Assembly (NCBI GenBank): GCA_963843925.1
Contig: CAWJML010000004.1
Span: 289,123-353,122, forward strand
DNA length: 64,000 bases
Reading direction: 5' to 3'
Source of the DNA: an uncultured Chloroflexia bacterium
GTDB lineage: Bacteria; Chloroflexota; Anaerolineae; Anaerolineales; Villigracilaceae
Under the pieces are notes generated by a model that saw nothing but the letters and a program-made list of their open reading frames with translations, searched no databases and was not told the DNA's origin. How positions within the stretch are numbered: the first letter of the stretch is position 1; every line of letters begins with the position of its first letter. The translations under genes were made by a program, and so were the position numbers. Below are positions 3,523-39,739 of this stretch, piece after piece.

Positions 3523-3659
3523 CCAGTATTCGCATCACCTGGATCTCCAGCGCACAATTTGGCGCGATCAAATCCCTCATCACATTAATTAATAAGGTTG
3601 GAAGACCCCCATTCGTCTTGTATTTTGGCGATAAGATTTGATGGAAACCCCCTGTTTAC

Positions 3660-5976
3660 TCAGACTTTGCGCAGGAAAGCTACCGCCTTCCTCTGTAAAT
3701 CGTTCATCACCAGCGAGAGGCTGTGACCGGGGCGGAAATCCTGCACTTTTATAACACGTAAAGCCTCCAGTAACGTCGTCTCTGATGGCAGAAATTCTTG
3801 CAGGTGATTGGGGGTCTGATAGAAAAAGTCCCGCTCGAAACTACTATCGCGATCATCCAGGTTGATATTAAGAGGATAAATATGAGCTTCCATTAAATCC
3901 TGGAAGAAATGGGTGCCGAACGATGGCTCCAGATTCCGGGCCGACGCCCTTGCCTGTCAATTCGACCAAGGCACGCGTATGGTATATGTCACCATAAGCA
4001 ATACTGACGCCCAGATCAGGCGTCGAAGTTCCCCACCGGCCGGGTCCAATGCATATAAACGTCTCATCCTTAAACAAAGCGTTCAGTTTCCCAAGCGCAC
4101 GCTCCAATCGGTTGCGAGCAGCTGGTGATATCAGTGAAAAATATCCCTCCGGTGGGACGAAGAGTATCCACTGGATACCGGCTACAGCACCGCGCGGGAC
4201 CATGCGCCGGGTGGTAAAAATGATATCTTCACGGCTGAGGGGATCGGGGAGGTCAACGGTTTCCCCTTCTGCGATCGCACTTTGCGGTCGGCATTGCAAC
4301 AGCGTGATGCATACCTCGGGTCGTAATGATTGCGGGTCCAAGATCTCAGCGGTAAATTCTGTATCCACTGGTGATTCGTAATGCTTTTCAAGGGTGGTCA
4401 GGATGGTCTTCATTCGCGCAGCAAAAGGTGTATGCCTCAAAAGTCCATGAAAGGTGATGACCAGGTTCTTAGCCTCGACCAGGCTGGTGCGGATTGGCTC
4501 GATAAAGCCGCCTTCGTCCGCCTGGCAGATGAAACGCAAACTGGGGTACTGGGGTGTTAGGACCGTGTGGATAGGGAGGGTTTTGAAGGTGTTTTCTTCC
4601 AGATCGATCAGGTCCACGAAATGTTGTGAATGCTGGAGAATGGCCTCGGTAGAATCAGCAGGTTGCAGCAGCGGGTGGCTTAATGCGACCAGTCGCGGCT
4701 GTTCGTTGGCAATCGCGTCCACAGCACGCGTGCCCAGCCCCCACACCAGGCGCAGGAACCCATCCTCTGGTCGAATCTGTGTCGACCACCGGTATAAGTT
4801 CCGGCTAAAAGCAACCCCGGCCGTGTGCGGAAGAAAGTATCTCCCGAATTGTTCCCCTTCGACAAACTGGATCAGCACGGCAATGCGCTCATCGTAATCT
4901 ACCAGCCCCTTTTGGTGGCGGTAGAGCAATGCGTTTGGGTTGAGACAGGATGCATAGACGCGTGCAATCGCCTCAGTGATATTGGTGAGGTTCTCTTCAG
5001 CTGAACCCTGGTTTGGACAAAAATAACTGTTGTACTTTCCGGCGAACGAAGTGCCAAAACTGTCTTCCAAAAGGCTGGACGAACGCACGATCAATGGACG
5101 TCTGCTTGCCTCATCAAGGATTAATCTGAGTCGTTCAAGAATGTCTTTGGGGAAGGTCCCTCCAACAAAATCTTTCACGATCTTTGGATAATCAGCCCGC
5201 ATCGCGGCTTCGTTTTTGTATTTCTGGTCGGACCAATGGATCAAGCCATTGGCTGCCATGAATGCATAATACATATCCGAAGCCAGGAAATATGAAGTGG
5301 GGATCCGGATCATTTTCTGCACTTCGACTGGAGCTTCATCCCTCAGGATCCGGTAACCCAGCATCATCCCGGCAGATTTACCACCGATCTTTCCATACCC
5401 GATTTTACGACTGTATATATCCCGCAGATCATCGATCGTGAACCATTTTCGTGCGATTTTCAGGTAAGCCAGTTGGTCGCTGATCATGGTGCGGATGAGC
5501 ACCACTTTGATTTCCTGCAAGCGTGCTTCCAGGTGCTTTCGACGGGAGACGGGCATCCTTTCAATATCTTCTGCCTGTTCGAAGAGCATATCCTGTGGAG
5601 CCAGTTCCGGGTTGAATGTGATCAGGTCCGGTTCTTTTCCCCGCTCGCTAACCGCTTCCCGTACGATCGCCTCGAAATCCCCATAAGGGAGGTTATTGCC
5701 AAAATAAAAATCAGTCAAATGATCTATCACCCGTCGCTGTCTTTCGTCCCACACTTCCTGGGTTTCCTGGGCGTACGGGTCACCAAGCCCTTCTCGTTTC
5801 TGGCTTTCTATGGCTTTATGGCGTGCCTCCGCCTCGAAATCCGACTTGGCGATCACCCCCCGCGTAAACAATTGGTTACGCATGATCTGGCGGATGCGCG
5901 CGCTCAGAACGGGATATTCGCTTAGTGTCAGGTAGATGCGCAAGACACGATCAGTGGAAGGATTGGGGAGGCTCAT
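3660..5976 (-). CDS. PEP/pyruvate-binding (PPDK_N, ATP-grasp type) domain protein of unknown role; frame broken by a net +1 nt near 3936-3942
   Basis: The motif PLIVRSSSLLEDSFGTSFAGKYNSYF is typical of the PEP-utilising-enzyme nucleotide-binding domain. ORF 3868-5976 ends in the out-of-frame tail GPESGAIVRHPFLPGFNGSSYLSS. The adjacent frame reads NLEPSFGTHFFQDLMEAHIYPLN and continues into ORF 3660-3893. Confidence 0.7.
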
Positions 5977-5985
5977 GGGTTTATT

Positions 5986-7200
5986 TTACGGCTCAGATAA
6001 TCTGGAAGACAGGAACCATCTCTTGAGCAAACTGATCACCAGGCACACACTCAGGATTAAACCACCCCAGGTATTTAATGAATCCAGCACCGGAAAGCCG
6101 TAGACTTTAGCCAAAACCAGGACGATACCGATCCCAAATCCTGCAACCAGAAGCGACGCTACCTTACGGTCAAGAAGGATCAAAACAAGCCAGGCAGATG
6201 GCAGGATCAACCAGACATATGTCGCCACCCACGCTTTCCCCAGGAAGATCAATAAGCCTGTCAAATTGAGGATAAAAACCAATTCACTCGTGATGCCGGT
6301 TTTCCCGAGTGGTATGGCAGGCTGCCGTTCATCCTTGCTGAAACGGCGGCCGATAATCCACACCGTTCCCCCAAGCAGACCCAGTCCGCATAACTCGACC
6401 ACTCGTGACAGGTTCGGATAAGCGGATAGGTATTTGAGAAGTGATTGGTTGAGCCAAAAAGCGTCTCCTTTACCGACCTCGGGTAACACATATCGGATGT
6501 AATCAACAAACCAGCCGAACGGGACGAAGAACATTGAAAATGCTGCCAGCACAACGATACTGACCAGGTACATAACCAGGAACCGCAAGTCGCGCCGAAA
6601 AATGACGTAATAGATCAACAAGAAACCCGGACTGACCTTGATGATGGTTGCCACCGCCAACAGGATTGCTGCCGGTAAACGCTTGTTTCTTGCATATAAC
6701 AGGTAACTTGCCAGGATCAGACAGATAATGAACACATCAACTTGACCGTGCTGGATGTGACTCAATAACGGGAAGGAAACGAGAGTAAAACCAAGTCCAA
6801 GCGCCAGGAAGGTCATTCGCTGCTCAGGCGCGAACGAACGAACCATCCAGAATAATATGGCAATATAACTCAGCCCATAGGCGATCAACCAGGACAGCCT
6901 GGCTTGATCATACGGTAACCGCGCTATCAGGCTGAAAATGGGCAATGTTGGAGGTGGGTAGATGAAATCTGATATTACAGGCTGGTTTTGAGAGTTCGTT
7001 CCCCAAAAATATGGATTGTCCGATCGCAGGAATCGTGCCCCCGCGTTGTAATATGCGAAGAAATCCACGTTGTGGAGGACTCCCGCATCCGTCTGGGTGG
7101 GTTTGTTATAAAAATCCCGGGCTGAGATAAGCCAGTAATTCCAACCGAATACCGTGATCAAGACCAGGATGAGGATTTTAACAGTTACGGATAATTTCAT
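5986..7200 (-). CDS. Polytopic membrane protein, DUF2029/GT87-like glycosyltransferase
   Basis: 404 aa with about 10 or more hydrophobic helices. The N-terminal loop DFFAYYNAGARFLRSDNPY resembles the conserved loop of DUF2029/GT87 mannosyltransferase-like proteins. This is from memory, not searched. Confidence 0.5.
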   Translation of the reverse strand: MKLSVTVKILILVLITVFGWNYWLISARDFYNKPTQTDAGVLHNVDFFAYYNAGARFLRSDNPYFWGTNSQNQPVISDFIYPPPTLPIFSLIARLPYDQARLSWLIAYGLSYIAILFWMVRSFAPEQRMTFLALGLGFTLVSFPLLSHIQHGQVDVFIICLILASYLLYARNKRLPAAILLAVATIIKVSPGFLLIYYVIFRRDLRFLVMYLVSIVVLAAFSMFFVPFGWFVDYIRYVLPEVGKGDAFWLNQSLLKYLSAYPNLSRVVELCGLGLLGGTVWIIGRRFSKDERQPAIPLGKTGITSELVFILNLTGLLIFLGKAWVATYVWLILPSAWLVLILLDRKVASLLVAGFGIGIVLVLAKVYGFPVLDSLNTWGGLILSVCLVISLLKRWFLSSRLSEP

Positions 7201-7213
7201 TATTGTCCATTAT

Positions 7214-7246
7214 AAAACGTCAGGGCGATTTGCACCCTGACGTTTT
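7214..7246 (-). terminator. Hairpin terminator downstream of dnaN
   Basis: AAAACGTCAGGG (7214-7225) pairs with CCCTGACGTTTT (7235-7246). The 12-bp stem has A/T runs on both sides. Confidence 0.65.
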
Positions 7247-7267
7247 AAGCTTGCAGATTCTTATTGC

Positions 7268-8398
7268 TTAACCTAAATGCATCGGCATAATAACATGCAG
7301 AAAATTATCATCACCTACGGGGCGAATGACACCCGGGGAATTCGGGGCAGAAGTTTCCAGCGCCACATTGGGGCTTTTCATCACTTCCAGTACTTCACGC
7401 AGGTATTTAACATTGAAGGCGATCAGCAATCCCACACCGTCTATGGTTGCTGCCACGACCGTTTCGTTCGAGCCGGTTTCCTCGGATTGAGCGGAAATTT
7501 CGACCGAGCCGGGTTCCATTTCACCGGCTGATTTAATATCAAAGCGGGCCACATTAGATCCTTCGCGGGCGAATATCTCTGCCTGTTTACACGCTTTGAG
7601 AAGTGCCGGGGTGGAAAGAATGGTGCGGCTTTTATAGGAGCGCGGGATGATCTGCTGGTAATCCGGGAAGGTCCCGTCGATCAATTGTGATACAACTTCC
7701 ACTTCTTTCATGCGGAATACCACCTGTCCGCGTCCCTTCGGCAAGACCATCGAGATCATTTCATTTCCATCGCCTGCCACGCGAGCCAGTTCGCCCAAGG
7801 CTCGTGCCGGGATGATAGCGGTGAATGGCTGTGGTGCTGCCTCGGAAAGGATCCCTTTCCGGACTGATAATCTAAAACCGTCAGCCGCAGCCATGCTGAT
7901 ACTGTCCTTATCCACCGTTACCAGGACACCCATTAATACCGGTCGGGCCTCGTCCACCGATGCTGCGAATACCACCTGCGAGACCATGTCTTTAAAATCG
8001 GCTACATTTAAAAGGATTGCGCCTTCCATGTCCGGTACGGGCAAAGGTGGAAATTCCTGTGCGTCGATACACTTGATGTCTGTGTTCGATGCGCCGCAGT
8101 GTACGTTCAGGGTTTGAGTGCTGGCATTCAAGGTCAGGCTGACCTGTTCCGGAGGGAGAGTTGCTACGAGATCAGAGAACGTGCGGGCAGGGACGGTTGT
8201 TGAACCCTCCGCTTCGATCTTGGCACCGATCCAGCAGGTGATTCCTAATTCCAGGTTGGTTGCCGAAAGACGCAGGCGACCCTCATCGCTGGCGACCAAT
8301 ACATTCGAGAGCACCGGCAGTGTACTACGTGGGCTGACCGCACGTGAAACTATACCCAATCCACGAGCCAGGCTTTCTTGTAAGATGGTTGCTTTCAT
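7268..8398 (-). CDS. dnaN: DNA polymerase III beta sliding clamp
   Basis: MKATILQESLARGLGIVSRAVSPRSTLPVLSNVLV...LRLSATNLELGI...EVEVVSQLIDGTFPDYQQIIP...MPMHL is the canonical DnaN pattern. ATG 8398 is preceded by GGAGAGGAA. The longer ORF to 8515 has no support. Confidence 0.95.
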   Translation of the reverse strand: MKATILQESLARGLGIVSRAVSPRSTLPVLSNVLVASDEGRLRLSATNLELGITCWIGAKIEAEGSTTVPARTFSDLVATLPPEQVSLTLNASTQTLNVHCGASNTDIKCIDAQEFPPLPVPDMEGAILLNVADFKDMVSQVVFAASVDEARPVLMGVLVTVDKDSISMAAADGFRLSVRKGILSEAAPQPFTAIIPARALGELARVAGDGNEMISMVLPKGRGQVVFRMKEVEVVSQLIDGTFPDYQQIIPRSYKSRTILSTPALLKACKQAEIFAREGSNVARFDIKSAGEMEPGSVEISAQSEETGSNETVVAATIDGVGLLIAFNVKYLREVLEVMKSPNVALETSAPNSPGVIRPVGDDNFLHVIMPMHLG

Positions 8399-27180: not shown

Positions 27181-29367
27181 TTAGTCCTTCTTTTTAATCA
27201 CGGATAAATTGGCCAGGCTTGCAGCCAGGCGCTTGATACCGACGCTTTCGAATACGACATCAACGGTCTCGTCGTTGTCTTGAACCCGGCTGTTTAAAAC
27301 AATTCCTTCCCCCCAACCAGAGTGCATGACACGCATGCCAGCCCGGAAACGGGTCTCTACTTTTGCGGTGGGTACTGCGTCGGATCGCAGCCAGGTTGGA
27401 TTTTGGGATCGGCTGCCGCGAACTTGACCGCCGCGCGCTTTTCCGTTCAATAATGGAGCAGGGATATCTTCCAGATAGCGGGAAGGGATGGTTTCCTCAC
27501 CATAACCGCGGCCTCCCCGTCGTTGGGCGCGCAGCAAATACAGCCGGTCTTTAGCCCTGGTGATCCCTACGTAGAACAGCCGGCGTTCTTCCTCCATGGC
27601 TTCAGGTTCATCGAATGAGCGGCTGTGCGGCAGGATGCCGTCGTCCAAGCCTACAATGAAAACCGATCCGAACTCGAGCCCTTTGGCTGCGTGCAGGGTA
27701 AGCAAGGTTGGTGCATTTGTCCCTTCGGCGAGCGTATCTTGATCGGAAATCAGTGCCACGTTCTCCAGAAAGTCAGTCAGGGTACGATCTTCAAATTCAA
27801 CTGCGAGTCGTCTCAATTCCTGGACGTTTTCCCACCGCTCGGCACCTTCATCGCTTCCATCGTCGAGGTATGACTGGTAATTGATATCTTTTGTAATCCG
27901 ATCGAAAAGTTCCACGACGGTCATGCGTGGAGCTTCGGCACTCCAGCTCGACACCAGGACACCGAATTCTGCCAACGGCCCGATGGTGCGACCGGTGAAT
28001 TGCGCAAGGTAAGTTGAATTGTTCCCGCGGGCGAGATCCATTAAAACTCCCGAAGGACTGGTGCCTGTTTTGTGGGCTGTATTATGCAGGCTCGCGATGG
28101 TCTTCTCTCCTACGCCTCGTGGTGGAGTGTTGATTACCCGGTCGAGCGAGATTTCATCAGCGGGGTTATACACAAGTCGCAGGTAGGCGATAATATCTTT
28201 TACTTCGCGCCTGCCATAGAATCGTTGAGCACCGACCAATTTATATGGAAGTCGGGCTTGCAGGAAGGCTTCTTCCAACAACCGGGATTGGGCATTCGTG
28301 CGGTACATGACAGCACAGTTGCCTGGCTCGACAGCTTTGCTGGCGACCAGGTTGGCGATGGTATCCACAACGAATGCCGCTTCAGTGTAATCATCGAGCG
28401 CCTCATAAAATATGAGCTTCTCGCCTTCGCCGCGTTCAGTGAATAGGCGTTTTTGGCGTCTGTTTGGATTTCGGTCGATCACCGCTGTTGCTGCATCGAG
28501 GATGGTTTGCTTTGAGCGGTAATTCTGTTCTAGCAAAATTACCTGGGCATCCGGGTAATCCTGCTCGAAACGCTGGACATTACGGTAATCCGCACCCCGC
28601 CAGCGGTAAATCGATTGGTCCGGGTCCCCAACCACAAAAATGTTATTGTGCCTCGAAGCAAGGTGCTTAAGCAATACGTACTGGGCAAAATTGGTATCCT
28701 GGAATTCGTCAACCAGCACATGATGAAAACGCTCGGAGTATTTCTCGCGCACGGCGGGGAATTCTGAAAGCAGGTGAGCCGTCCATAATAAAAGATCATC
28801 AAAATCGACGGCATTGTTTTGTTTCAATAATTCCTGGTAGCGCTTGTAAACTCGTTTTACCACTTCGTCCCGATAGGTCTGGATCGGATAGTCTTCCGGG
28901 AAGATTAAGTCATTCTTTGCGCGCGAGATGGCAGCGTGGACGGATTGGGGGCGGTAGGCTTTATCGTCCAGGTTAAGATCATGGATGGCACCCTTGACGA
29001 CTCTCTGCTGATCGTCATCGTCGTAGATGACAAAGCTGGTGTCAAAGGGAAGCTGTTCTGATTCACGCCGCAATAACCTGGCACAGATGGAGTGAAAGGT
29101 ACCCAACCAGAGACCGTCTGCTGCCATTTCTCCCAGCATCTCATGAACGCGGTTTTTCATTTCATTGGCTGCTTTATTCGTGAAAGTAACTGCCAGCATC
29201 TGGTACGGACGCACTCCCTGCTTGGCAAGCAGGTAAGCAACTCGCTGGGTAAGCACGCGGGTCTTCCCGGATCCGGGACCTGCCAGTACAAGAACAGGTC
29301 CCGCCCCGGCAGTTACTGCTATGCGTTGTTGTGGATTAAGTTTGTCGAGGAAATCCATGAGCGGCAA
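27181..29367 (-). CDS. pcrA: UvrD/PcrA-type ATP-dependent DNA helicase (SF1)
   Basis: LNPQQRIAV, Walker A AGPGSGKTRVL, VDEFQDTN, GDPDQSIYRWRGA, TLHAAKGLEF and YVGITRAK. 728 aa. Confidence 0.93.
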   Translation of the reverse strand: MPLMDFLDKLNPQQRIAVTAGAGPVLVLAGPGSGKTRVLTQRVAYLLAKQGVRPYQMLAVTFTNKAANEMKNRVHEMLGEMAADGLWLGTFHSICARLLRRESEQLPFDTSFVIYDDDDQQRVVKGAIHDLNLDDKAYRPQSVHAAISRAKNDLIFPEDYPIQTYRDEVVKRVYKRYQELLKQNNAVDFDDLLLWTAHLLSEFPAVREKYSERFHHVLVDEFQDTNFAQYVLLKHLASRHNNIFVVGDPDQSIYRWRGADYRNVQRFEQDYPDAQVILLEQNYRSKQTILDAATAVIDRNPNRRQKRLFTERGEGEKLIFYEALDDYTEAAFVVDTIANLVASKAVEPGNCAVMYRTNAQSRLLEEAFLQARLPYKLVGAQRFYGRREVKDIIAYLRLVYNPADEISLDRVINTPPRGVGEKTIASLHNTAHKTGTSPSGVLMDLARGNNSTYLAQFTGRTIGPLAEFGVLVSSWSAEAPRMTVVELFDRITKDINYQSYLDDGSDEGAERWENVQELRRLAVEFEDRTLTDFLENVALISDQDTLAEGTNAPTLLTLHAAKGLEFGSVFIVGLDDGILPHSRSFDEPEAMEEERRLFYVGITRAKDRLYLLRAQRRGGRGYGEETIPSRYLEDIPAPLLNGKARGGQVRGSRSQNPTWLRSDAVPTAKVETRFRAGMRVMHSGWGEGIVLNSRVQDNDETVDVVFESVGIKRLAASLANLSVIKKKD

Positions 29368-29410
29368 TACTTCTAAAGCAGCACGACGCGCCGTGCCCCC
29401 AATCCACTTA

Positions 29411-29809
29411 TTATCTCAATTCCGATGTGCAGTTTGGGCAGCGGGTTGCCTTGATGGAAATGATGGTAAAGCAGTGCGGGCATTCTTTTGTCGTTGGTTC
29501 TGCAACCGGGGCAGGTGCTGGTTTCTTTTGCAGACTGTTGATACCTTTGACCATCAGGAAGATTACCAGGGCAATGATAAGAAAATCGATCACGTTGTTG
29601 ATAAAGTTTCCGTAGGTAACTGTTGCTTTCCCGATCGAAAAGGAGAGACCGGTAAAATCAATCCCGCCGATGATCAGACCTATCAACGGCATCAGGAGAT
29701 CGTTTACCAGCGAACTGATGATTTTACCAAACGCACCTCCGATAATAACGGCGACAGCCAGGTCCATGACATTGCCACGCATGATGAAGTTTTTAAACTC
29801 ATTAATCAT
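29411..29809 (-). CDS. mscL: Large-conductance mechanosensitive channel MscL with C-terminal CxxC...CxxC zinc-ribbon
   Basis: [52 protein letters not shown] is the canonical MscL N-terminus and TM1. The tail reads [24 protein letters not shown]. Confidence 0.92.
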
Positions 29810-29935
29810 TGCGATTCTCCTTTATTGTACCGAAAAGGATTGACACTTCATTGTACCGTTGCGGTTCGGGGCTGTCAACGAAAGCACCGCGCTGTTGTAT
29901 AATCCTTGCATATATTCATGGTTTGGAGGGTCGTG

Positions 29936-31864
29936 ATGTCATTTTATCGGTCAGTTCTCCCCCGGTTTGGTATCCTTATCATGCTGTCAATGGTGGTCGC
30001 CTGTGGACAGGGTACTTTTGTGCCAACCCCCTCTACCCAGGAACCAATCCCAACTGCGACCCCGATACCGCCGCGCCAGTTGACCGTATGTCTCGGGCAG
30101 GAACCTTCCACTTTATACCCGGTAAATAATCCATCCTCGGTTGCCAAAAGCGTATTAGCCGCCGTCTATGACGGTCCTTTTGATACCAATTCCTACAATT
30201 ATCAGCCCGTTATACTGGAACGATTGCCCAGTATTGGGAATGGTGATGCACAACTCTTTTCGAAACAGGTTGCCGTAGGCGATGAGGTAGTGGATAGCAG
30301 TGGTGCGCCCGTGACATTGGTTGCAGGAACCATGGTTCGACCGTCTGGTTGCCAGAGTGACACTTGCGCAGTCAAGTATGACGGGAACACCTCGCTCCAG
30401 ATGGATCAGATGCAAGTGACTTTTCGAATGCTCCCCGATCTCACCTGGTCGGATGGTGAACCCCTCACTGCTGATGATTCAGTTTACGCGTACCAGGTTG
30501 ATAAAGATCCTGCAACCGTTGGCTCGAAATATGTTCTTGACCGCACGCAGTCTTATGAAGCCACAGATACTCTATCCGTTCAATGGTGGGGTAAACCCGG
30601 TTTTATCGATTCGACTTATTTTATTAATTTTTGGTCGCCGCTGCCAGCCCATCTTTGGAAACAGATACCCGTCAACCAGCTTGCTGAAACCAGTGAAACT
30701 GCCCGTACTCCTGTTGGCTGGGGGGCATATTCGATCAGGGAGTGGGTTTCTGGTGACCATATCACCCTCGTGAAGAACCCATACTATTTCAGGAAGGCTG
30801 GTGGCTTACCCAAGTTCGATATCCTTACCTTCCGTTTCGTCACAGATCCTGGAAGTGCGATAAGTGACCTCTTGGCTGGTACCTGTGACATTCTCGATCC
30901 AAGCATTGCGCTGGATGGACAGGTAGATGTACTGCGTTCGATGGCGAAGCAGGATCAATTACAAGCACTATTTTCGACTGTACCAACAATGGAAGAACTT
31001 GCCCTCGGCATTCAACCTGCTGCGTACGATAATCAAAAAGTTCCAGCAGGGAGTCCTCCAGACTACTTCAGTGACCCTCGCGTCCGGCAGGCGGTGGCAA
31101 TGTGTCTTGACCGTCAGAAGGTAGTTGACTCGGTACTATCCGGTTTGACCTATGTTCCAAACAGCTACCTGCCTCAGGAACATCCGCTTTACAATCCTAA
31201 TATAACTGCCTATTCATATAATGTTGCGGCTGCCGGTCAATTGCTCGATCAGGCTGGTTGGCAGCTTGTGGGTGGTGATCCGACCTCTCCGCGCCAGTCG
31301 TTGGGATCGCAAAATATACCGGCTGGGACCCCGCTGGAAGTAACCTACGTTACCTCCAATGCCACCCAACGACAGCAAGTAAGTTCCATCCTGGCAGCCT
31401 CGCTTGCCCAATGCGGGATCAAGGTTCACATTCAGTATCTGGATTCGACGGTCCTGTATGCAGGCGGACCGCAGGGTGTTTTATTTGGTAGAAATTTCGA
31501 CCTTGCTGAATTCGCAATGGGAAGCACAGGGATAGAATCATCCTGTGGTTGGTACACCACTTCAGCCATCCCAAATAATTCCAACCACTGGGTGGGTGAG
31601 AATGTCAGTGGTTACAGCAGCCCGGCTTTTGATGCAGCCTGTCTGGCCTCCCTGCAATCCCTTCCGGATGAGCCGGCCCATACCACATCGTATGCACAGG
31701 CACAGGCTATTTTTTCCCAGGACCTGCCTGTCATACCGCTCTATTGGCGGGTCAAGTCTGCTGCCGCGTGGGTCGGAATATGTCATTTCTCGCTTGACCC
31801 GACAGCCTCCAGCAATTTGTGGAACATCGAGGCGATTGACAGTGGCTCGGACTGTCAACCGTGA
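29936..31864 (+). CDS. ABC transporter substrate-binding lipoprotein, family 5 (peptide/nickel type), canonical domain order
   Basis: Lipobox LSMVVAC. N-lobe motifs (TFRMLPDLTWSDGEPLTADD; GWGAYSIREWVSGDHITLVKNPYY) precede the C-lobe motifs (PPDYFSDPRVRQAVAMCLDR; YSYNVAAAGQLLDQAGW). RBS GGAGGG. Confidence 0.85.
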   Translation: MSFYRSVLPRFGILIMLSMVVACGQGTFVPTPSTQEPIPTATPIPPRQLTVCLGQEPSTLYPVNNPSSVAKSVLAAVYDGPFDTNSYNYQPVILERLPSIGNGDAQLFSKQVAVGDEVVDSSGAPVTLVAGTMVRPSGCQSDTCAVKYDGNTSLQMDQMQVTFRMLPDLTWSDGEPLTADDSVYAYQVDKDPATVGSKYVLDRTQSYEATDTLSVQWWGKPGFIDSTYFINFWSPLPAHLWKQIPVNQLAETSETARTPVGWGAYSIREWVSGDHITLVKNPYYFRKAGGLPKFDILTFRFVTDPGSAISDLLAGTCDILDPSIALDGQVDVLRSMAKQDQLQALFSTVPTMEELALGIQPAAYDNQKVPAGSPPDYFSDPRVRQAVAMCLDRQKVVDSVLSGLTYVPNSYLPQEHPLYNPNITAYSYNVAAAGQLLDQAGWQLVGGDPTSPRQSLGSQNIPAGTPLEVTYVTSNATQRQQVSSILAASLAQCGIKVHIQYLDSTVLYAGGPQGVLFGRNFDLAEFAMGSTGIESSCGWYTTSAIPNNSNHWVGENVSGYSSPAFDAACLASLQSLPDEPAHTTSYAQAQAIFSQDLPVIPLYWRVKSAAAWVGICHFSLDPTASSNLWNIEAIDSGSDCQP

Positions 31865-32199: not shown

Positions 32200-33189
32200 A
32201 TGCCTGTCCCCATCCTCGAAGTAACAAATCTTGAAACCCAGTTTAAAACCCCTGAAGGAATAGTACATGCTGTAAATGGAGTCTCTTTCTCACTGGAAGA
32301 AGGTGAGACAGTAGGCCTTGTTGGCGAAAGTGGTTGCGGTAAAAGCGTGACCATGCTTTCCGTCCTGCGATTGATAGCGATGCCTCCCGGAAAGATCGTT
32401 GCCGGGCAGGCATTATTTCATGACAAAGATCTATTGCTGATGCACACGGAGGATATTCGGCATGTACGTGGTGGTCAGATCGCGATGATCTTCCAGGACC
32501 CCATGACTTCTTTAAATCCAGTTATGACAATTGGCAACCAGATGGCAGAACCTTTGATGATCCATCTGGCTTTGACCAAAAAACAGGCATTGGCTCGTTC
32601 GATCGAATTGCTTGAAATGGTTGGGATCCCAAGGGCCAAAGATCGCCTGCCGGATTACCCGCACCAATTCTCGGGTGGCATGCGCCAGCGTGTCATGATC
32701 GCCATGGCGTTATCCTGCAACCCTCAAATCTTGATTGCCGATGAACCAACCACGGCCTTGGATGTGACTATTCAAGCCCAGATCACCGAGTTGGTTAAAC
32801 GTCTGCGCGATGAACTGGGGATGGCTGTCATCTGGATTACCCATGACCTGGGTGTAATTGCCGGGCTAGCCCGCCGGGTAACCGTAATGTATGGCGGATA
32901 TATGATCGAGGAAGCTCTCGTCAAAGATATCTATGCAAATCCGCAGCATCCATATACGATCGGTCTGCTGGGCAGTTTACCCCGGTTGGATAGCCAGACC
33001 CATCAACGCTTGTTTTCGATCGAGGGTGCGCCCCCGGTATTGTTTGAGAAACCAAATTATTGTCCATTTGCCCCGCGTTGTAAGTGGGTCATGGATCATT
33101 GTTGGAAAGAGAACCCGGTCCTGCAGGAAGTTGGGAGCGACCATCGCGCAGCTTGCTGGGTTGATACTAAAACCGGGAAGGCGCGCTAA
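32200..33189 (+). CDS. ABC transporter ATP-binding protein, OppD/DppD-like (pair 1)
   Basis: Walker A GESGCGKS, signature FSGGMRQR, Walker [13 protein letters not shown] and the C-terminal oligopeptide-type extension with CPFAPRC. Confidence 0.92.
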
Positions 33190-34181
33190 TGGCTACCACC
33201 ACTCACAATGATGTCCTTTTGCATGTGGATGATCTTTTCATGCATTTTCCGATCTACCGTGGCGTGATTCGCCGGCAGGTGGGAGCAGTCCATGCGGTGG
33301 ATGGGGTTTCATTTGATATCAAGCGCGGCGAGACCCTGGGTTTGGTAGGTGAGTCCGGGTGTGGTAAATCGACCACCGGGCGGACGATCCTCCAACTCTA
33401 CAAGCCAACCTCCGGACATGTATATTACGATGGAACCGACCTGACCAAATTGAAACGCGAAGAGATGCGCTACATGCGGCGTGAAATGCAGATGATCTTT
33501 CAGGATCCATATGCAAGCTTGAATCCGCGCATGACCGTCGGAGATATCATTGCCGAACCGCTGGTTGTGCACAGTGTTGGCACCGGCAAGGAGATCCAGC
33601 AAAGCGTCGAACATCTTTTGGACGTGGTCAAGTTGAACCCGGCCTTTGCCAGCCGCTATCCACATGAATTTTCAGGCGGACAGCGCCAGCGCATTGGTGT
33701 GGCGCGCGCACTCGCCTTGCAGCCTTCCTTGATCATCTGTGATGAACCCATCTCGGCGTTGGATGTGTCAATCCAGGCGCAGGTGGTCAATCTGCTCGAG
33801 GACCTGCAAAAAGAGTTTCATTTAACCTACCTGTTCATTGCCCATGATCTGTCGATGGTGCGCCACATTAGCGACCGCGTCGCGGTAATGTATCTCGGTA
33901 TCATCGTTGAGATAGCCGACCGGGCGGATCTGTACAGTAACCCGCTCCATCCTTATACCCAGGCACTTCTATCCGCAGTGCCGATTCCTGACCCCATTGC
34001 AGATTCCAAACGCCAGCGCCGGGTACTGGAAGGTGATGTGCCTTCGCCAGTGAACCCGCCCTCCGGCTGCCGCTTCCGCACACGCTGCTGGTTGGCTGAA
34101 AAGATCTGTGAGGAACAGCGTCCTGAATTTCGGGAAATTACACGTGATCATTATGTTGCATGTCATATGGTGAAAGGATAG
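33189..34181 (+). CDS. ABC transporter ATP-binding protein, OppF/DppF-like (pair 1)
   Basis: [37 protein letters not shown] and GCRFRTRC. The TAATG start overlaps the preceding stop. Confidence 0.92.
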
Positions 34182-34277
34182 ATCTTATCTGGAAGGAGGT
34201 GGTTGCCTGAAAGAATAATGCTGTGTCGTATTTATTTTGAACCATATCCAATCTAGTCAGTTAGAGGAGAGAAGATT

Positions 34278-36305
34278 ATGCGTAAGTTAATTGTTGTTGC
34301 AAGTCTTGTGATGGTCGCAAGCATGCTACTTGCTGCTTGCGGTCCCACAGCCACCCCAGCGACCACGGTACCGCCCACCCAGGCTGGTGCCCCGGCTACT
34401 GAGGCTCCCACGGCTGAACCGACCGCAGCGCCAGTATCCAATCCCTACATTGGTTCTGGCAAAGTGGATGGCAATGGCGTTCCGCCCGAGTTCTTCAATG
34501 ATCCTCATGTCCGCAAGGGCTTCGCCTATGCCTTCGACTGGACGACCTACATTACCGACGTGTTCGCTGGTGAAGCCATCCAGCCGCTCGAGCTCGCTCT
34601 GCCCGGCATGCCTGGTTTTGATCCCGCTGCGCCGCACTACACCTATGACCTGGCAAAATCTGCCGAAGAGTTCAAGGCTTCCACCCTTACATCTGCAGAT
34701 GGCAAGTCCCTCTGGGATGTAGGTTTCCGCGTTCAAATGCTTTACAACCAGGGCAACACTTCCCGCCAGATCATCGCCGAAGTCATGGCGTCCAATTTGG
34801 CCAAGGTGAATCCCTTGTTCCAGGTCGAAGTCCTTGGTCTGCCATGGCCTGCCTACTTGGCCGCCCAGCGCGCTGGACAGATCCCGATCATGACCGCTGG
34901 TTGGTTGGAAGACATTCACGACCCGCATAACTGGTACCAGCCTTATACGCTGGGCGCCTACGGTGGACGGTCGAACCTGCCCGCCGACCTCAAGGCTCAG
35001 TTCAAGGTCATCTTGGACAAAGGCGTTGCTCTGACCGACCCGGCTGCACGCACCGAGGTCTATAAGGGCTTTAACCAACTGTACTATGACCAGGCCGTCG
35101 GTGTTCCGCTGGTGCTGGCCACCTCCCATGGTTTCGAGAATACCTGGGTCCAGGGTCGCATTTTGAACCCGATCTACCCCGGTCTCTACTTCTACCCGAT
35201 GTCCAAGGCTGCCGGTGCCAAGAATCCGACCACCTTCACCTATGCAACCATTGGTGACATGGACACTCTGGATCCGGCTCTGGCCTATGATACTGCCAGC
35301 GGTGAGACCATCCAGAATATTTACCAAACCCTGGTGTTCTACGATGGCGAAGCCACCGACAAGTTCGTTCCGATGCTTGCCGATGCGATGCCGACCATTT
35401 CCGCAGATGGTCTGACCTATACCTTCCACATCCGCGCCAATGTGAAATTCCACAATGGTGACGTTATGACTCCGTCCGATGTGGCCTATTCGTTCCAGCG
35501 CGGCCTGCTCCAGGGCGGTGGTGTTTCACCGCAATGGCTGCTCTCCGAGCCGTTCTTTGGTGTAGGCAACCAGGATGTCACAGCCCTGATCGATCCCGCC
35601 CTCGCGGACGATCAAGCCAACCTTGCCAAGGTTGATCCCGCCAAGCTGGTCGAAGTCTGCCAGAAGGTAAAGGGTATGATTGCTGCCGACGATGCCGCTG
35701 GCACCGTCACCATGACCCTTGCACAGCCTTGGGGCCCGTTCCTGGCCACCATCGCCCAGACCTGGGGCTCTGTCCTCGACCAGAAGTGGGTTGCTGCGAA
35801 TAAGGGCTGGGATGGCACCTGCGAAACCTGGCAGAACTTCTATGGAATGCAGTCTGCCGATGATCCCATCAGTGGTATCACCAATGGTACCGGCGCTTAC
35901 ATGCTGGACCACTGGACCAAGGGCACCGAGATCGTTATGACCAAGAACCCCAGTTACTGGGGAACTGCTCCTGCCCTGGATCGCGCCGTCATCCAGATCA
36001 TCCCCGAATGGGGCACCCGCTTCGCCGAACTGCAAGCTGGTGACGCTGATATCGTCGACGTACCGGTGGAGAATCGTTCCCAGGTGGACGCCATGGTAAA
36101 GGAATTCCAGGTTTACGATGCTTCAACCAATACCTATGGTCCACTCCAGCAACTCTGCTCGATCGATTCAACCCAGACAGGCCCTGCCAAGTACATCGCC
36201 TGCAAACCCGGTGAGACCGCACCCACGGGCAAGACCATGCGCTTACGCATTGGCCGCCCAGGCATCACCATGGATGTAATGCTGTTCAACTGGGCTATTC
36301 ATTAA
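34278..36305 (+). CDS. Family-5 ABC substrate-binding lipoprotein with circularly permuted lobe order (C-lobe module first, N-lobe module second)
   Basis: Lipobox LLAAC followed by a Pro/Thr/Ala linker. Then PPEFFNDPHVRKGFAYAFDW...HYTYDLAKSAEEF...TAGWLEDIHDPHNWY...LYFYPMSK (about residue 310). Then AAGAK-NPTTFTYATIGDMDTLDPALAYD...DGLTYTFHIRANVKFHNGD...GTGAYMLDHWTKGTEIVMTKNPSYWG...MLFNWAIH-stop. It is one uninterrupted frame. Confidence 0.8.
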   Translation: MRKLIVVASLVMVASMLLAACGPTATPATTVPPTQAGAPATEAPTAEPTAAPVSNPYIGSGKVDGNGVPPEFFNDPHVRKGFAYAFDWTTYITDVFAGEAIQPLELALPGMPGFDPAAPHYTYDLAKSAEEFKASTLTSADGKSLWDVGFRVQMLYNQGNTSRQIIAEVMASNLAKVNPLFQVEVLGLPWPAYLAAQRAGQIPIMTAGWLEDIHDPHNWYQPYTLGAYGGRSNLPADLKAQFKVILDKGVALTDPAARTEVYKGFNQLYYDQAVGVPLVLATSHGFENTWVQGRILNPIYPGLYFYPMSKAAGAKNPTTFTYATIGDMDTLDPALAYDTASGETIQNIYQTLVFYDGEATDKFVPMLADAMPTISADGLTYTFHIRANVKFHNGDVMTPSDVAYSFQRGLLQGGGVSPQWLLSEPFFGVGNQDVTALIDPALADDQANLAKVDPAKLVEVCQKVKGMIAADDAAGTVTMTLAQPWGPFLATIAQTWGSVLDQKWVAANKGWDGTCETWQNFYGMQSADDPISGITNGTGAYMLDHWTKGTEIVMTKNPSYWGTAPALDRAVIQIIPEWGTRFAELQAGDADIVDVPVENRSQVDAMVKEFQVYDASTNTYGPLQQLCSIDSTQTGPAKYIACKPGETAPTGKTMRLRIGRPGITMDVMLFNWAIH

Positions 36306-36425: not shown

Positions 36426-36440
36426 TTAAGAGGTAATCAG

Positions 36441-37506
36441 ATGCTGACTTACATTATTCGCCGCCTATTGCTCGTCCCGCTGCTTCTCTTCGGGGTGACA
36501 GTACTGATATTTGCGATGTTGCAGTTCCTGAGCCCGGTCGAACGATCGGCGCTGTATATTCGCGACACCCCAAAGAACGATGCACAGATGAATGCGATCA
36601 TCAAGAATTATGGACTCGATAAGCCGCTCTATGTTCAATACTGGGTCTGGCTTGTCGGTCGGGTAGATCCAAATACGCACGTGAGGAAGGGCGGGATCAT
36701 CTTCGGCGATTTTGGTTACTCACGTACCGCTTCCCAACCTGTGCTCGATTTGATCAAAACTCGCTTCCCTAATACACTGGACCTGACCATTTGGGCGGTT
36801 GCCCCCGTGCTTCTGGTGGGAATTTGGCTCGGGGTCCAGGCAGCTGTCCATCAGAACGGTTTCGTGGACCAGGCCGCCAGGGTATTCAGTATCGTGGGTA
36901 CATCCTTTCCAACCTTTGTTTTCGGTTTGTTGATGTTAATGCTTTTCTATGTGTCGTTCAGGTGGTTCTTGCCTGGACGGGTCTCGGATTGGGCCAGCGC
37001 AATAGTCTTCTCCGATAGTTTTCATCACTTTACCCGCCTGCTGACATTTGATGCCCTGCTGAATGGCCGCTTCGACATCTTTTGGGATGCGATGCGCCAC
37101 ATGTTGATGCCCATCCTGACTCTCTCATATATCAGCTGGGCGACCTTCGTGCGTGTGACCCGTTCATCCATGCTCGAGACCCTGAGAATGGAATACGTGA
37201 CGACCGCCCACCGCGAAAGGTGTGCGTGAGCGTGATGTCATAAGCAAGCATGCCCAGCCAAACGCCATGATCCCGGTGGTGACCCTGGCAGGCTTCCAGG
37301 TTATCGGTCTGCTCGGAGGCGTCGTCATCACGGAAACAGTGTTCAATTATCCCGGTATCGGCCAGGCGGCAGCCGCTGCTGCACAGAACCTGGATGTGAT
37401 CACTGTCCTGGGCTTTGCACTCTTTAATGGATTGATACTGATCTGTTCCAATTTAGTTGTAGATATTTTGTATGCGGTCGTTGATCCACGCGTCCGCCTC
37501 TCGTAG
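36441..37506 (+). CDS. ABC transporter permease, OppB/DppB-like; frame broken by a net +1 nt near 37206-37212
   Basis: The start MLTYIIRRLLLVPLLLFGVTVLIF is typical. ORF 36327-37229 ends ...MEYVTTAHRERCA-stop. The next frame reads AKGVRERDVISKHAQPNAMIPVVTLAGFQ, which is the EAA-loop region, and continues to 37506. Confidence 0.88.
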
Positions 37507-37517
37507 GGAGATCTATC

Positions 37518-38558
37518 ATGACTGAAACTGTTCTTACGGGTACACCCACCCCCATCCTCGAGACCATTCCATTAAAGAAAATTGGCAGGCTCGAACGCTT
37601 CCTTGGCCCTGAAAACTACCGCATCCTTCGAGGCCTGGTTAAGACGCCAGCTTCGATTTTCGGCTTCATCATGATCGGCATTTTTATCGTAATTGCGTTG
37701 GCAGCCCCAATCATTGCGCCGCCGGCTGGACCCGACCCCTACAAGATCCCTCGCGACGGCTACAGCGCCCAACCCAAACCGATGATGTCAAAATGGTCGG
37801 AAATGAACATGCCGCCTTTGCCCTTCTGGTGGAAACCCATCATGAAGACGGACCAGTGGGTTCATATCTTGGGGACTTCCCAGGGACAATATGATATTTT
37901 CTACGGCATCATCTGGGGCACACGCACGGCCTTTCGTACCGGTTTTATTGTGGTTGTCGCCACTTTCTTGATCGGCGTCATCGTTGGATCGGTCTCTGCT
38001 TATTATGGCGGGGGGGTCGACAACGTCATCATGCGTATTGTGGATGTCTTCCTTACCTTGCCATTCATCCTGGCAGCCCTCATTATGGCAGCTGTTTTGA
38101 CACCCAAGATCGGAAAAAGTCTAATACCAGCAATCATCGCGCTTATCACCTTTGGATGGATGGGATACGCGCGCGTGATCCGCGGTGATATCCTTTCCAT
38201 AAAGGAACGGGATTACGTCATGGCTGCCCGTGTCATTGGAGCCAAGGATGGTCGTATCCTGTTCCGGCATATCTTACCGAACGCGATCTTCCCAACCATG
38301 GTTTTAGCTTCGCTTGCGATCGGTGACGTGGTTCTGAGTTTTGCAGCCCTTAGTTTTCTAGGTATCGGAACTTCCATCGGTTACGCGGACTGGGGTCAGG
38401 TGTTAAGTTTCGCCCGCAACTGGATCGGCAGCCTGAATACCTACTGGTATATTGTCGTTTGGCCCGGTCTAACCCTTGTGCTCTTTGTAATGGGTTGGAA
38501 CCTGGTGGGCGATGCCTTGCGCGATGTGCTCGATCCCCGCATGCGTGGGAAGACTTAA
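37518..38558 (+). CDS. ABC transporter permease, OppC/DppC-like
   Basis: 346 aa. HILGTSQGQYDIFYGIIWGTR plus an EAA-like ARVIGAKDGRILFRHILPN. RBS GGGAGA. Confidence 0.9.
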   Translation: MTETVLTGTPTPILETIPLKKIGRLERFLGPENYRILRGLVKTPASIFGFIMIGIFIVIALAAPIIAPPAGPDPYKIPRDGYSAQPKPMMSKWSEMNMPPLPFWWKPIMKTDQWVHILGTSQGQYDIFYGIIWGTRTAFRTGFIVVVATFLIGVIVGSVSAYYGGGVDNVIMRIVDVFLTLPFILAALIMAAVLTPKIGKSLIPAIIALITFGWMGYARVIRGDILSIKERDYVMAARVIGAKDGRILFRHILPNAIFPTMVLASLAIGDVVLSFAALSFLGIGTSIGYADWGQVLSFARNWIGSLNTYWYIVVWPGLTLVLFVMGWNLVGDALRDVLDPRMRGKT

Positions 38559-38721: not shown

Positions 38722-39739
38722 GTGATAGCCAAAACTCAACCCTTGCTCGAAGTGAAAAACCTTAAAACTTACTTCTACACCGAAGATGGTGTGGTGAAGG
38801 CAGTGGATGGTGTCGATTTTGTCGTTTATCCTGGCGAAGTACTGGGCTTGGTGGGTGAGTCGGGCTGCGGGAAAAGTGTCACTTCATTATCGATCATGAG
38901 GCTTATCAGCCTGCCGGGAAAGGTTCTCGAAGGTGAAATTGTATTTGACGGGCAGAATTTGCTCAACTTGACCGAAACCGAGATGACCCACATGCGGGGC
39001 AATCGCATCTCGATGATTTTCCAGCAACCGCAATCCGCCCTCAACCCGGTTTTTAAAGTGGGTGACCAGATCGCAGAAGTACTTAATATCCACCAGGACC
39101 TTGGCAGGGAATCAGGCTTGGAAGCGCGCCATCGAGCTGCTGACCATGGTCGGAATCCCTGAACCTGAAAAACGGGCCGATGCCTTTCCGCATGAACTAT
39201 CCGGCGGCATGGCTCAACGAGTCATGATTGCCATGGCTCTGGCTTGCGTCCCGGAGTTGTTGATCGCAGATGAGCCGACTACTGCCCTGGATGTGACCAT
39301 TCAAGCTCAGATCCTTGACTTGATGCGTGACCTCCGCGCAAAAGTGGGCGCATCGGTCATCCTGATCACCCACGACCTGGGAGTGATCGCTGAAATGGCT
39401 GAGCGCGTCGCAGTCATGTACGCTGGTCGTATCGTGGAACAGGCTGATGTAAAGAACTTGTTTGCCAATCCGCGCCATCCATATACCCAGGGATTAATGG
39501 GATCCATTCCGATTCTCGGCAGGGTAAAGGATCGCCTGGAGGTGATTCCGGGCATCGTACCAAACCTGGTTGATTTACCGGCTGGCTGCCGCTTCGCCCC
39601 CCGCTGTAAAGCGCGCCTTGATTACAAATTACAGATTTGCACAGAAGTTGAACCAGATCTGATCCCGAACTCTTCCGAGCACCTGGTCCGCTGCTGGCTA
39701 TATCAGGACCGGGAAGGACATACCGCTCCACTCAAGTAA
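38722..39739 (+). CDS. ABC transporter ATP-binding protein, OppD/DppD-like (pair 2); frame broken by a net +1 nt near 39097-39101
   Basis: [11 protein letters not shown] in ORF 38722-39162. ORF 39062-39739 supplies [35 protein letters not shown] and [12 protein letters not shown]. Removing one C of GACC gives [12 protein letters not shown]. Confidence 0.88.

Follow-up and report, generated by a model that had tools for sequence, protein, structure and literature searches.

A probable natural circular permutant among the cluster C substrate-binding lipoproteins of uncultured Anaerolineae, and its relatives with other breakpoints

The model of permutation by duplication is known for DNA methyltransferases, saposins/swaposins and other proteins. 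Among the ligand-binding lipoproteins of ATP-binding cassette (ABC) transporters, the closest described system is TpMglB-2 (Tp0684) of Treponema pallidum, a natural circular permutant for which the name "Type Ic / Cluster Bc" was proposed (Brautigam et al. 2016, PMC4990184). In cluster C of the substrate-binding proteins (SBPs), the canonical chain runs from an N-terminal part of domain I through domain II and back to domain I, over a hinge to domain III, and over a second hinge to the C-terminal part of domain I; domain III is contiguous, and the lobes are connected covalently by the two antiparallel hinge strands at its flanks (PMC7312458; PMC8566422 for DppA). In this study, we analyzed a stretch of 64,000 nucleotides from an uncultured bacterium of the Anaerolineae (Chloroflexota), referred to here as the window, which contains a gene for a family-5 SBP whose two halves stand in reversed order. 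Our results make it very probable that its product is a functional, lipid-anchored cluster C SBP of the surrounding ABC importer and a natural circular permutant, of the type that we call T1. A sequence-only reading of this DNA had first proposed the permutation and knew of no described permutant in this SBP cluster. For cluster C the literature agrees: in our search of literature accessible without subscription, we found no natural circular permutant in the cluster, only engineered permutants, biosensors and TpMglB-2, and the mention of circular permutation in PMC8694067 is generic. In cluster B, natural circular permutation was already documented (PMC4990184).

Swapped order, junctions and predicted fold

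The Pfam family profile PF00496 (SBP_bac_5) matches the window protein with 212 bits (gathering cut-off, 32.4) in two stretches that lie in swapped order, the better of which places residues 362-605 on profile positions 1-187 of 368, and the NCBIfam DppA model places residues 75-298 on its positions 306-523 of 535. Alignment to Escherichia coli DppA (1dpe, 507 aa) with phmmer gives the same picture, with residues 70-299 falling on DppA 273-496, residues 319-407 on 2-95, and residues 472-601 on 132-243. When the sequence is un-permuted (residues 311-675 followed by 56-310), the profile matches fuse into one colinear match over positions 1-363 of 368 with 218 bits. Residues 55-310 correspond to residues 426-681 of a canonical-order relative, P0048 (71% identity), and residues 314-674 correspond to its residues 57-418 (67%). 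In canonical coordinates (module A, c1-365; module B, c366-620), the family representative P0121 consists of c364-620 followed by c5-364, with no repeat. By these comparisons the swapped order is statistically unambiguous, as the sequence-only reading had anticipated: both segments are homologous to one canonical protein, each occurs once, and the rotated sequence is colinear over its full length. The resulting topology, III-hinge-I(C-terminal part)-connector-I(N-terminal part)-II-I, departs from that of canonical cluster C. We found no NCBIfam model dedicated to it, only subthreshold partial matches to the DppA, NikA, OppA and similar models.

The gene is a single uninterrupted open reading frame (ORF) of 675 codons plus stop (Table 1). 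Its product begins MRKLIVVASLVMVASMLLAAC, with a lipobox LAAC at Cys21 followed by a Pro/Thr/Ala-rich linker. Read from the sequence, the signal peptide is MRK-LIVVASLVMVASML-LAAC, which fits the lipobox pattern [LVI][ASTVI][GAS]C, and in an alignment of 63 family members C21 is invariant and A20 is conserved in at least 90%; the window protein is thus a predicted bacterial lipoprotein. Module B comprises the first hinge segment (PYIGSGKVDGNGVP), domain III, the second hinge segment and the old C-terminal strands, with the motifs PPEFFNDPHVRKGFAYAFDW (residues 69-88) and TAGWLEDIHDPHNWY and then ...NPIYPGLYFYPMSK up to residue 310. Module A begins with what was the N-terminal part of domain I, continues through domain II, where an insertion specific to the family contains C461 and C515, and returns to domain I for its second part; its motifs are TFTYATIGDMDTLDPALAYD, DGLTYTFHIRANVKFHNGD and GTGAYMLDHW...NPSYWG. 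The frame, the LLAAC/Cys21 signal and the B-AAGAK-A layout that the sequence-only reading had described were all verified. Its further claim, that the protein stops (...MDVMLFNWAIH) directly before the point where a canonical chain enters the hinge, is seen in the junction alignment with a canonical sister. The G+C content is 0.563 across the SBP gene (window positions 34001-36000) and ~0.50-0.53 in the flanks; the difference probably comes from the Ala/Pro/Gly-rich tether and the protein composition and not from a foreign origin.

Both junctions can be placed by comparison with extant proteins of canonical order. A homologue search covered 5.8 billion protein clusters, and among the best 120 clusters, which we considered further, four (P0048, P0055, P0089, and P0119; ~682 aa) have the order signal peptide-linker-A-B instead of signal peptide-linker-B-connector-A. 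Their identity to the window protein is 67-70% over module A and 63-71% over module B, and they share with it the motifs SPQWLL, WDGxCxTWQN, GSGxLDGNGIPxDFF and GWxEDIHDPHNW, the style of the signal peptide and the operon slot. At the break point, the sisters' internal ...ISMDVLLFNFNIATSKDSPNPYIGSGQLDGNGVPPDFF... corresponds to the C-terminus of the window protein (...ITMDVMLFNWAIH*) and then to its mature N-terminus (...SNPYIGSGKVDGNGVPPEFF...), so that an 8-residue loop (ATSKESPN) stands in the sisters where the permutant has its termini. At the join, the sisters' C-terminus ...YYYTISKQ* and N-terminus ...AAAGSKDPTTFVV... correspond to ...YFYPMSK-AAGA-KNPTTFTY... in the window protein, and the sisters have free termini where the permutant has AAGAK. 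On these alignments, the canonical sisters fix both junctions to the residue. P0089 (locus L001, GCA_036170095.1) occupies the equivalent slot of a homologous operon, whose ATPases are 77% and permeases 74-75% identical to those of the window. The sequence-only reading had named a normal A-B gene with the same flanks as a sign of local misassembly; such a relative exists in L001, but at ~67-71% identity it is a separate lineage and not the same gene, which points to evolution rather than to an assembly error.

The remaining 116 of the best 120 clusters have the same B-then-A order, at 58-76% identity and ~100% coverage, and their source assemblies come from NCBI, JGI, ENA and Logan. A genome scan with one genome per species gave 363 loci. 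Each of the best 80, which we examined, encodes the permuted protein, complete except where the contig does not permit it, and the contigs reach 3.2 Mb. Orthologues with the same order, for which the sequence-only reading had suggested a search, are therefore abundant. Nearly all of these 80 loci belong to Anaerolineae (Anaerolineaceae, Brevefilum, Longilinea, Mesolinea, and others), and the T1 form, the dominant one, is present in 80 or more Anaerolineae species and probably in hundreds. The 63-sequence family alignment contains 110 invariant positions distributed over both modules, including Y57, G59, S60, D64, G65, G67 and P69 in the new N-terminal segment. Two T1 genes lie in metagenome-assembled genomes (MAGs) with other labels: P0175 (L087, 8001-9893) in one labeled Candidatus Heimdallarchaeota, where it adjoins an M20 peptidase gene and ABC permease genes, and another (L060) in one labeled Thiomargarita. 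These could reflect horizontal transfer or binning contamination.

Structure prediction agrees with the alignments. The AlphaFold2 model of the window protein has a predicted local distance difference test score (pLDDT) of 89.5 and a predicted template modeling score (pTM) of 0.83, with only tether residues 22-49 disordered, and that of a canonical sister has a pLDDT of 88.7 and a pTM of 0.83. After rotation, the alignment of the window protein with P0089 spans 617 residues with 67% identity, the three-state secondary structures agree at 95%, and the order of secondary-structure elements is essentially the same; in native order only 362 residues align. Foldseek is an order-dependent aligner, and against cluster C entries of the PDB it covers only 286-340 columns of the window model (TMt 0.37-0.44) but 632-659 columns of the sister model (TMt 0.69-0.86). 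All of the top 50 PDB matches listed belong to binding proteins of the family-5 type, with E values down to 7e-17, and no full-length colinear PDB match was found by sequence or structure. The predicted fold is the three-domain bilobed cluster C fold, like that of DppA and OppA; the half-length matches of the permutant, set against the full-length matches of its sister, indicate that this fold has a connectivity unmatched among the solved structures searched. By sequence, fold and context, the window protein is a member of the SBP_bac_5/cluster C group.

The position of the cut can be given relative to the hinge. Residue 70 aligns to DppA residue 273, the 14 conserved residues ahead of it represent the segment that precedes domain III, and the C-terminus in the model falls just past a long domain-I strand (residues 654-670). 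Because of this, the alignment supports a cut of the chain at the first inter-lobe hinge crossing, where the sequence-only reading had also put the new termini, and the identical secondary-structure pattern of both models suggests that residues 56-69 still lie in the hinge. The cut separates the last domain-I strand (...MDVMLFNWAIH) from the first hinge segment (PYIGSG...), and the ancestral C- and N-termini, neighbors in domain I, are joined by a connector of 4-5 residues (AAGAK). The lipid tether would then enter at the hinge/domain III instead of at domain I, and the lobes would be covalently linked by only one of the two hinge segments, a change that may alter the Venus-flytrap mechanics, as the sequence-only reading had proposed.

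Other breakpoints, recurrence and origin

An exhaustive HMMER search of 1.84 billion representatives returned 627 matches at E <= 1e-30, of which the top 150 were mapped onto the canonical coordinates. Most are canonical, and the others include three further permutation types, T2 to T4, and one tandem fusion (Table 1). Every permutation type occurs in ABC operons and with real stop codons, with T2 and T3 in the syntenic slot of T1, and the old termini are joined in the permutants by a connector of 3-5 residues, occasionally longer. T2 is represented by ~12 clusters, including NCBI MAGs of Pelolinea and Anaerolineae with contigs of up to 565 kb, all with lipoprotein signals and a common C-terminal end point. 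The four T3 clusters all end in ...WDGTC[ND]. We considered whether T3 could be an artifact of truncation at contig ends and rejected this, as the two genes read on contigs have TAA stops inside the contig and the four clusters have a common end. One T2 subfamily (P0125, P0288, P0290, and P0292) has a Cys near both new termini (...EEVCTEV...; ...MMLCE), a pair that could form a disulfide stapling the cut loop, and the other (P0352 and P0371) is without it. The canonical proteins P0347 and P0446 have insertions of ~70-100 residues at c128-150, which indicates that the region cut in T4 is a structurally permissive loop.

A tandem SBP-SBP fusion, the kind of intermediate to which the sequence-only reading had pointed, was found among the relatives. 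P0126 (1372 aa) contains c8-614 in its residues 61-631 and c4-620 in residues 639-1219; it is present on two independent contigs, and its two copies share 60% identity and form a sister pair with a bootstrap value of 100. The gene (L083, 1672-5790) has a C-terminal extension and lies beside three GH116 glycoside hydrolase genes, and no ABC transporter gene is visible within the 13.8-kb locus; the protein may have a non-transport or glycan-related role. Separate SBP genes in tandem also occur: L023 carries two T1 genes (2458-4452 and 6001-8004), 56% and 61% identical to the window protein, and further fusions could arise from this kind of arrangement. The canonical members of the subfamily show fusions of other kinds. 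P0122, P0127, P0135, P0136, P0152 and P0154 have an N-terminal Ser/Thr protein kinase and a transmembrane segment, which suggests that the binding domain also serves as an extracellular sensor. A WD40 sequence stands at the N-terminus of P0138, and SLH-like repeats stand at the C-terminus of P0123.

We built neighbor-joining (NJ) trees on Kimura distances with bootstrapping from un-permuted sequences, with n=147 and then n=442. Fitch parsimony on the NJ tree yields 13 topology changes with a canonical root state, and about 9 of these changes are well supported. Seven lineages (three T4, two T3, and two T1) fall in clades with canonical sequences only, at bootstrap values of 79-100. Each of the three T4 lineages has a canonical partner, with a bootstrap value of 100 and 62-73% identity, but the identity among the three is only 35-42%. 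The T1 lineages P0334 and P0233 group with canonical sequences at bootstrap values of 89 and 99, and P0334 is 70-77% identical to canonical P0379 and 49% identical to the window protein. Pairwise BLAST comparison, which needs no tree, likewise finds permutants more identical to their canonical sisters than to permutants of the same type. We rejected one common origin for the T1 proteins, since P0233, P0334 and P0388 each resemble canonical proteins more closely than they do the window family; the 37-38% identity of P0175 to that family speaks further against it. Relatives in the Anaerolineae thus appear to have reinvented such rearrangements repeatedly, in four breakpoint classes. That the subfamily, which centers on the Chloroflexota, is a recurrent hotspot of circular permutation, with roughly 9-13 independent events at four permissive positions and with canonical, tandem and product forms all extant in homologous operons, is a proposal to which we give even chances. 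Several points count against it: the trees are distance trees (NJ/Kimura) with weak deep nodes, the sister relationship of the window family to canonical proteins is supported at only 62-92%, the tree region that holds T2a, T2c and T3a is ambiguous, and gene conversion between paralogues or reversion could inflate the number of independent events.

These same points leave some room for a view in which permutation is rare and T1 to T4 all stem from one ancient event, the closeness to canonical proteins being due to reversion, gene conversion or tree artifacts. The connectors are alike across types (x-A-G/A-A-K-N-P; their KNP is mostly KDP in canonical proteins), and in one clade with a bootstrap value of 84, where T2a, T2c and T3a stand with 22 canonical sequences, one origin with reversion costs the same as two origins. 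We nevertheless consider a single event unlikely, since four different breakpoints need at least four events regardless. The canonical pairings of the T4 lineages and of P0334 and P0233, and the canonical root state, also speak against it, as does the observation that the partner transporter proteins diverge in step with the SBPs.

As to the mechanism, the data fit duplication, in-frame fusion and truncation. A canonical lipoprotein gene would first have been duplicated in tandem. The two copies would then have fused in frame, with loss of the stop codon, of the spacer, and of the second copy's signal peptide and most of its linker, so that the connector remained. Finally, the first copy would have lost its module A and the second its module B. 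This route is favored because tandem genes (L023) and the P0126 fusion exist, because the connectors resemble the tail of the canonical lipoprotein linker (AAAGSKDPTTF in P0089 and AAGAKNPTTF in the window protein), and because the signal peptide and linker are retained and can be aligned between permutant P0334 and its canonical sister P0379. A genuine permutation could instead have arisen by gene fission and refusion in reversed order or by another rearrangement. In favor of that route, duplication requires three separate in-frame events, and no partial intermediate (A-B-A or B-A-B) was present among the 481 proteins retrieved in a non-exhaustive search, a result that also weighs against our own model. 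We judge fission and refusion improbable, however, because the full A-B-A-B fusion is found on two independent contigs, tandem SBP genes exist, a separately exported half-protein would need its own signal peptide, no pair of A-only and B-only genes was seen in the operons examined, and the connectors look like remnants of the lipoprotein linker of a second copy.

The operon, its integrity and its role

The SBP gene stands in an operon that encodes Opp/Dpp-type ABC partners, two ATPases and two permeases. The order ATPase-ATPase-SBP-permease-permease is kept in 65 of the 80 permuted loci, as in the window, and the window permeases are 74-83% identical to those in the equivalent position of related loci. 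Asp212 in the motif GWLEDIHDP aligns with DppA D408, which binds the peptide alpha-amino group (PMC8566422), and GW.EDIHDP is invariant in the permuted and canonical alignments. A distant T1 homologue adjoins an M20 peptidase gene. From these features we propose, with moderate confidence, that the ligands are probably peptides and that the protein serves in their uptake. As the predicted fold and the cleft motif are retained, the window protein should still capture its ligand between the lobes and dock on the two permeases.

Some observations argue against this overall interpretation. DppA R355 is aligned to Met154, so that carboxylate clamping of the dipeptide type is not conserved and the site is not dipeptide specific; the peptide assignment draws on one conserved Asp and on generic features of the operon; and the placement of the cut in the hinge draws on alignment and secondary structure. 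In addition, the first permease gene downstream (Perm1) is frameshifted, with positions 36438-37229 in one frame and 37222-37506 in another, and this copy of the operon could be decaying if the break is a real inactivation and not a sequencing or assembly indel. The first ATPase gene of the next ABC operon (38722-39739) is also split, into overlapping ORFs at 38722-39162 and 39062-39739. Scattered frameshifts in different genes are seen as well in related long-read MAG loci (L003, L006, and L081).

Taken together, the two split genes in the window raise the question of whether the SBP gene is a nonfunctional relic. This is very unlikely in our view: its ORF is intact and has all 110 invariant positions (positions that its own sequence serves to define), the family is under obvious constraint across hundreds of genomes, and the scattered breaks in the related long-read loci suggest sequencing indels. 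Still less credible is a chimera in which module B of one paralogue was fused to module A of a different, unrelated one. Several SBP paralogues do lie close together in these genomes, sometimes in tandem, and could recombine, but we rejected this origin because both modules have the same nearest canonical relatives (the four sisters) and resemble them to a similar degree, the un-permuted sequence aligns end to end with one canonical protein (617 residues, 67%), and the adjacent paralogue in the window is far more distant. A local misassembly or chimeric contig, with the permuted ORF absent from the organism, has a practically negligible probability and was rejected: the imperfect assembly against which the sequence-only reading had cautioned does appear as frameshift-like breaks in neighboring genes, but the SBP gene is intact, the same architecture and junctions recur, across independent projects and assemblers, in at least 116 clusters and in no fewer than 80 species-level genomes, conservation extends to the connector and to both termini, and the divergence of the homologues (58-76% identity) excludes one shared systematic artifact.

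The features of the operon and of the protein are collected in Table 1 together with the break positions of the permutation types. The distant paralogue upstream, which the sequence-only reading had taken as its example of canonical order, is canonical, with residues 167-522 colinear with PF00496 positions 15-328. Farther upstream on the minus strand (27181-29809), translations alone suggest a helicase resembling UvrD/PcrA (27181-29367) and, at 29411-29809, a small membrane protein resembling MscL, neither of which has any bearing on the permutant.

Table 1. Features of the window (nucleotide positions) and break positions of the permutation types (canonical residue coordinates)
Feature	Position	Strand	Basis or remark
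Canonical-order family-5 SBP paralogue (distant)	29906..31864	+	Single colinear PF00496 match; beside the operon in >35 loci
Two ABC ATPase genes, Opp/Dpp D/F type	32200-33189 and 33189-34181	+	Directly upstream of the SBP gene; homologues in the same position carry PF00005 and PF08352 (oligo_HPY)
Complete T1 SBP gene (family-5/cluster C lipoprotein)	34278..36305	+	ORF, PF00496, swapped DppA alignment, identical public protein P0001
Lipoprotein signal peptide (predicted), residues 1-21	34278..34340	+	MRK, hydrophobic core, lipobox LAAC with Cys21; read from sequence; model helix 2-20
Pro/Thr/Ala-rich flexible tether, residues 22-55	34341..34442	+	pLDDT <50 at residues 22-49; length and sequence variable across the family
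Module B, residues 56-310	34443..35207	+	Equivalent to DppA ~260-507 and to canonical sister P0048 426-681
Connector AAGAK, residues 311-315	35208..35222	+	Old C-terminus (...YPMSK) joined to old N-terminus (NPTTF...); compared with canonical termini
Module A, residues 316-675	35223..36302	+	PF00496, DppA and P0048 alignments; ends ...MDVMLFNWAIH
Permease gene Perm1	36438-37506	+	Downstream of the SBP gene; split by a frameshift near 37222-37229
Permease gene Perm2	37518-38558	+	Downstream of Perm1
Break position, T1	~c365		First hinge crossing; window family, P0175, P0233
Break position, T2	~c450		Domain III loop; P0125, P0132
Break position, T3	~c200		Right after the conserved Cys of WDGxC, domain II; P0134, P0141
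Break position, T4	~c120-147		Variable domain II insertion; P0145, P0157, P0160
Tandem A-B-A-B	no breakpoint		P0126

Comparison with known systems

SBPs are textbook Venus-flytrap modules and the chassis of most genetically encoded biosensors, for which permutation sites that the fold tolerates have been hard-won by engineers. The subfamily described here shows where, in nature, the large cluster C fold permits a break. It also offers a matched set in which canonical proteins, a tandem fusion and the four permutation types share 50-70% identity and occur in equivalent operons; with this set it can be tested whether both covalent hinge strands matter for open-close dynamics and transporter docking. 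If our interpretation is right, the single covalent hinge link of T1 suggests that chain connectivity in the hinge is dispensable for Venus-flytrap function, and relocation of the tether may be a target of selection. There is a practical side as well, in that profile pipelines see two partial PF00496 matches or, in some MAGs, a "hypothetical protein," and annotation that is aware of domain order is needed. The recurrent use of several breakpoints and the natural matched pairs raise the interest of the finding.

Compared with canonical cluster C proteins such as DppA (1dpe/1dpp), OppA, AapF (7kz8) and Bacillus anthracis 5u4o, the window protein has the same predicted three-domain bilobed fold and belongs to the same Pfam family. 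It also shares the operon type (two oligo_HPY ATPases and two BPD_transp_1 permeases) and the GW..D..DP motif with the Asp by which DppA binds the alpha-amino group of the peptide, and it is predicted to be lipid anchored in the manner of the OppA-type proteins of monoderms. The differences are that its chain starts at the crossing from domain I to domain III and ends where a canonical chain enters the hinge, that the old termini are fused by AAGAK, and that DppA R355 is not conserved. Insertions in domains I and II that are specific to the subfamily also make it ~110-170 residues longer than the solved structures of cluster C, which have ~500 residues.

TpMglB-2 is likewise a permuted ABC ligand-binding lipoprotein, in which fold, ligand binding and closure are retained, and homologues with its topology are found mainly in organisms with membrane-tethered binding proteins (PMC4990184), a further likeness. 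By analogy with "Cluster Bc," the permuted form described here would be "Cluster Cc." The window protein is not itself a member of Cluster Bc, since all sequence and structure matches are to cluster C/PF00496, and the resemblance is one of principle only. TpMglB-2 is a sugar-binding protein of cluster B, type I, with a three-segment hinge, and belongs to a different family. In that protein, three strands of the N-lobe have moved to the C-terminus and a fourth crossover has been added, whereas the T1 cut would remove one of two covalent crossovers. Sequence similarity is poor in the permuted part of TpMglB-2, and its authors considered acquisition from another gene, whereas here both halves are 63-71% identical to an extant sister. 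Multiple breakpoints or a tandem intermediate were not reported for TpMglB-2 (PMC4990184), and both are present here.

The duplication model, finally, can be compared with the whole subfamily. In accordance with it, there is a tandem-fused relative, the ancestral termini are adjacent in the fold, the connectors resemble leftover sequence between two copies, and each breakpoint coincides with a variable loop or a domain boundary. Two differences from the model are that partial intermediates were not observed among the 481 proteins retrieved and that truncation must keep the signal peptide and linker, so that an internal in-frame deletion is required and not a new start codon. While most known cases consist of end products only, the canonical, fused and permuted proteins described here form an unusually complete series for the model of duplication, fusion and truncation.

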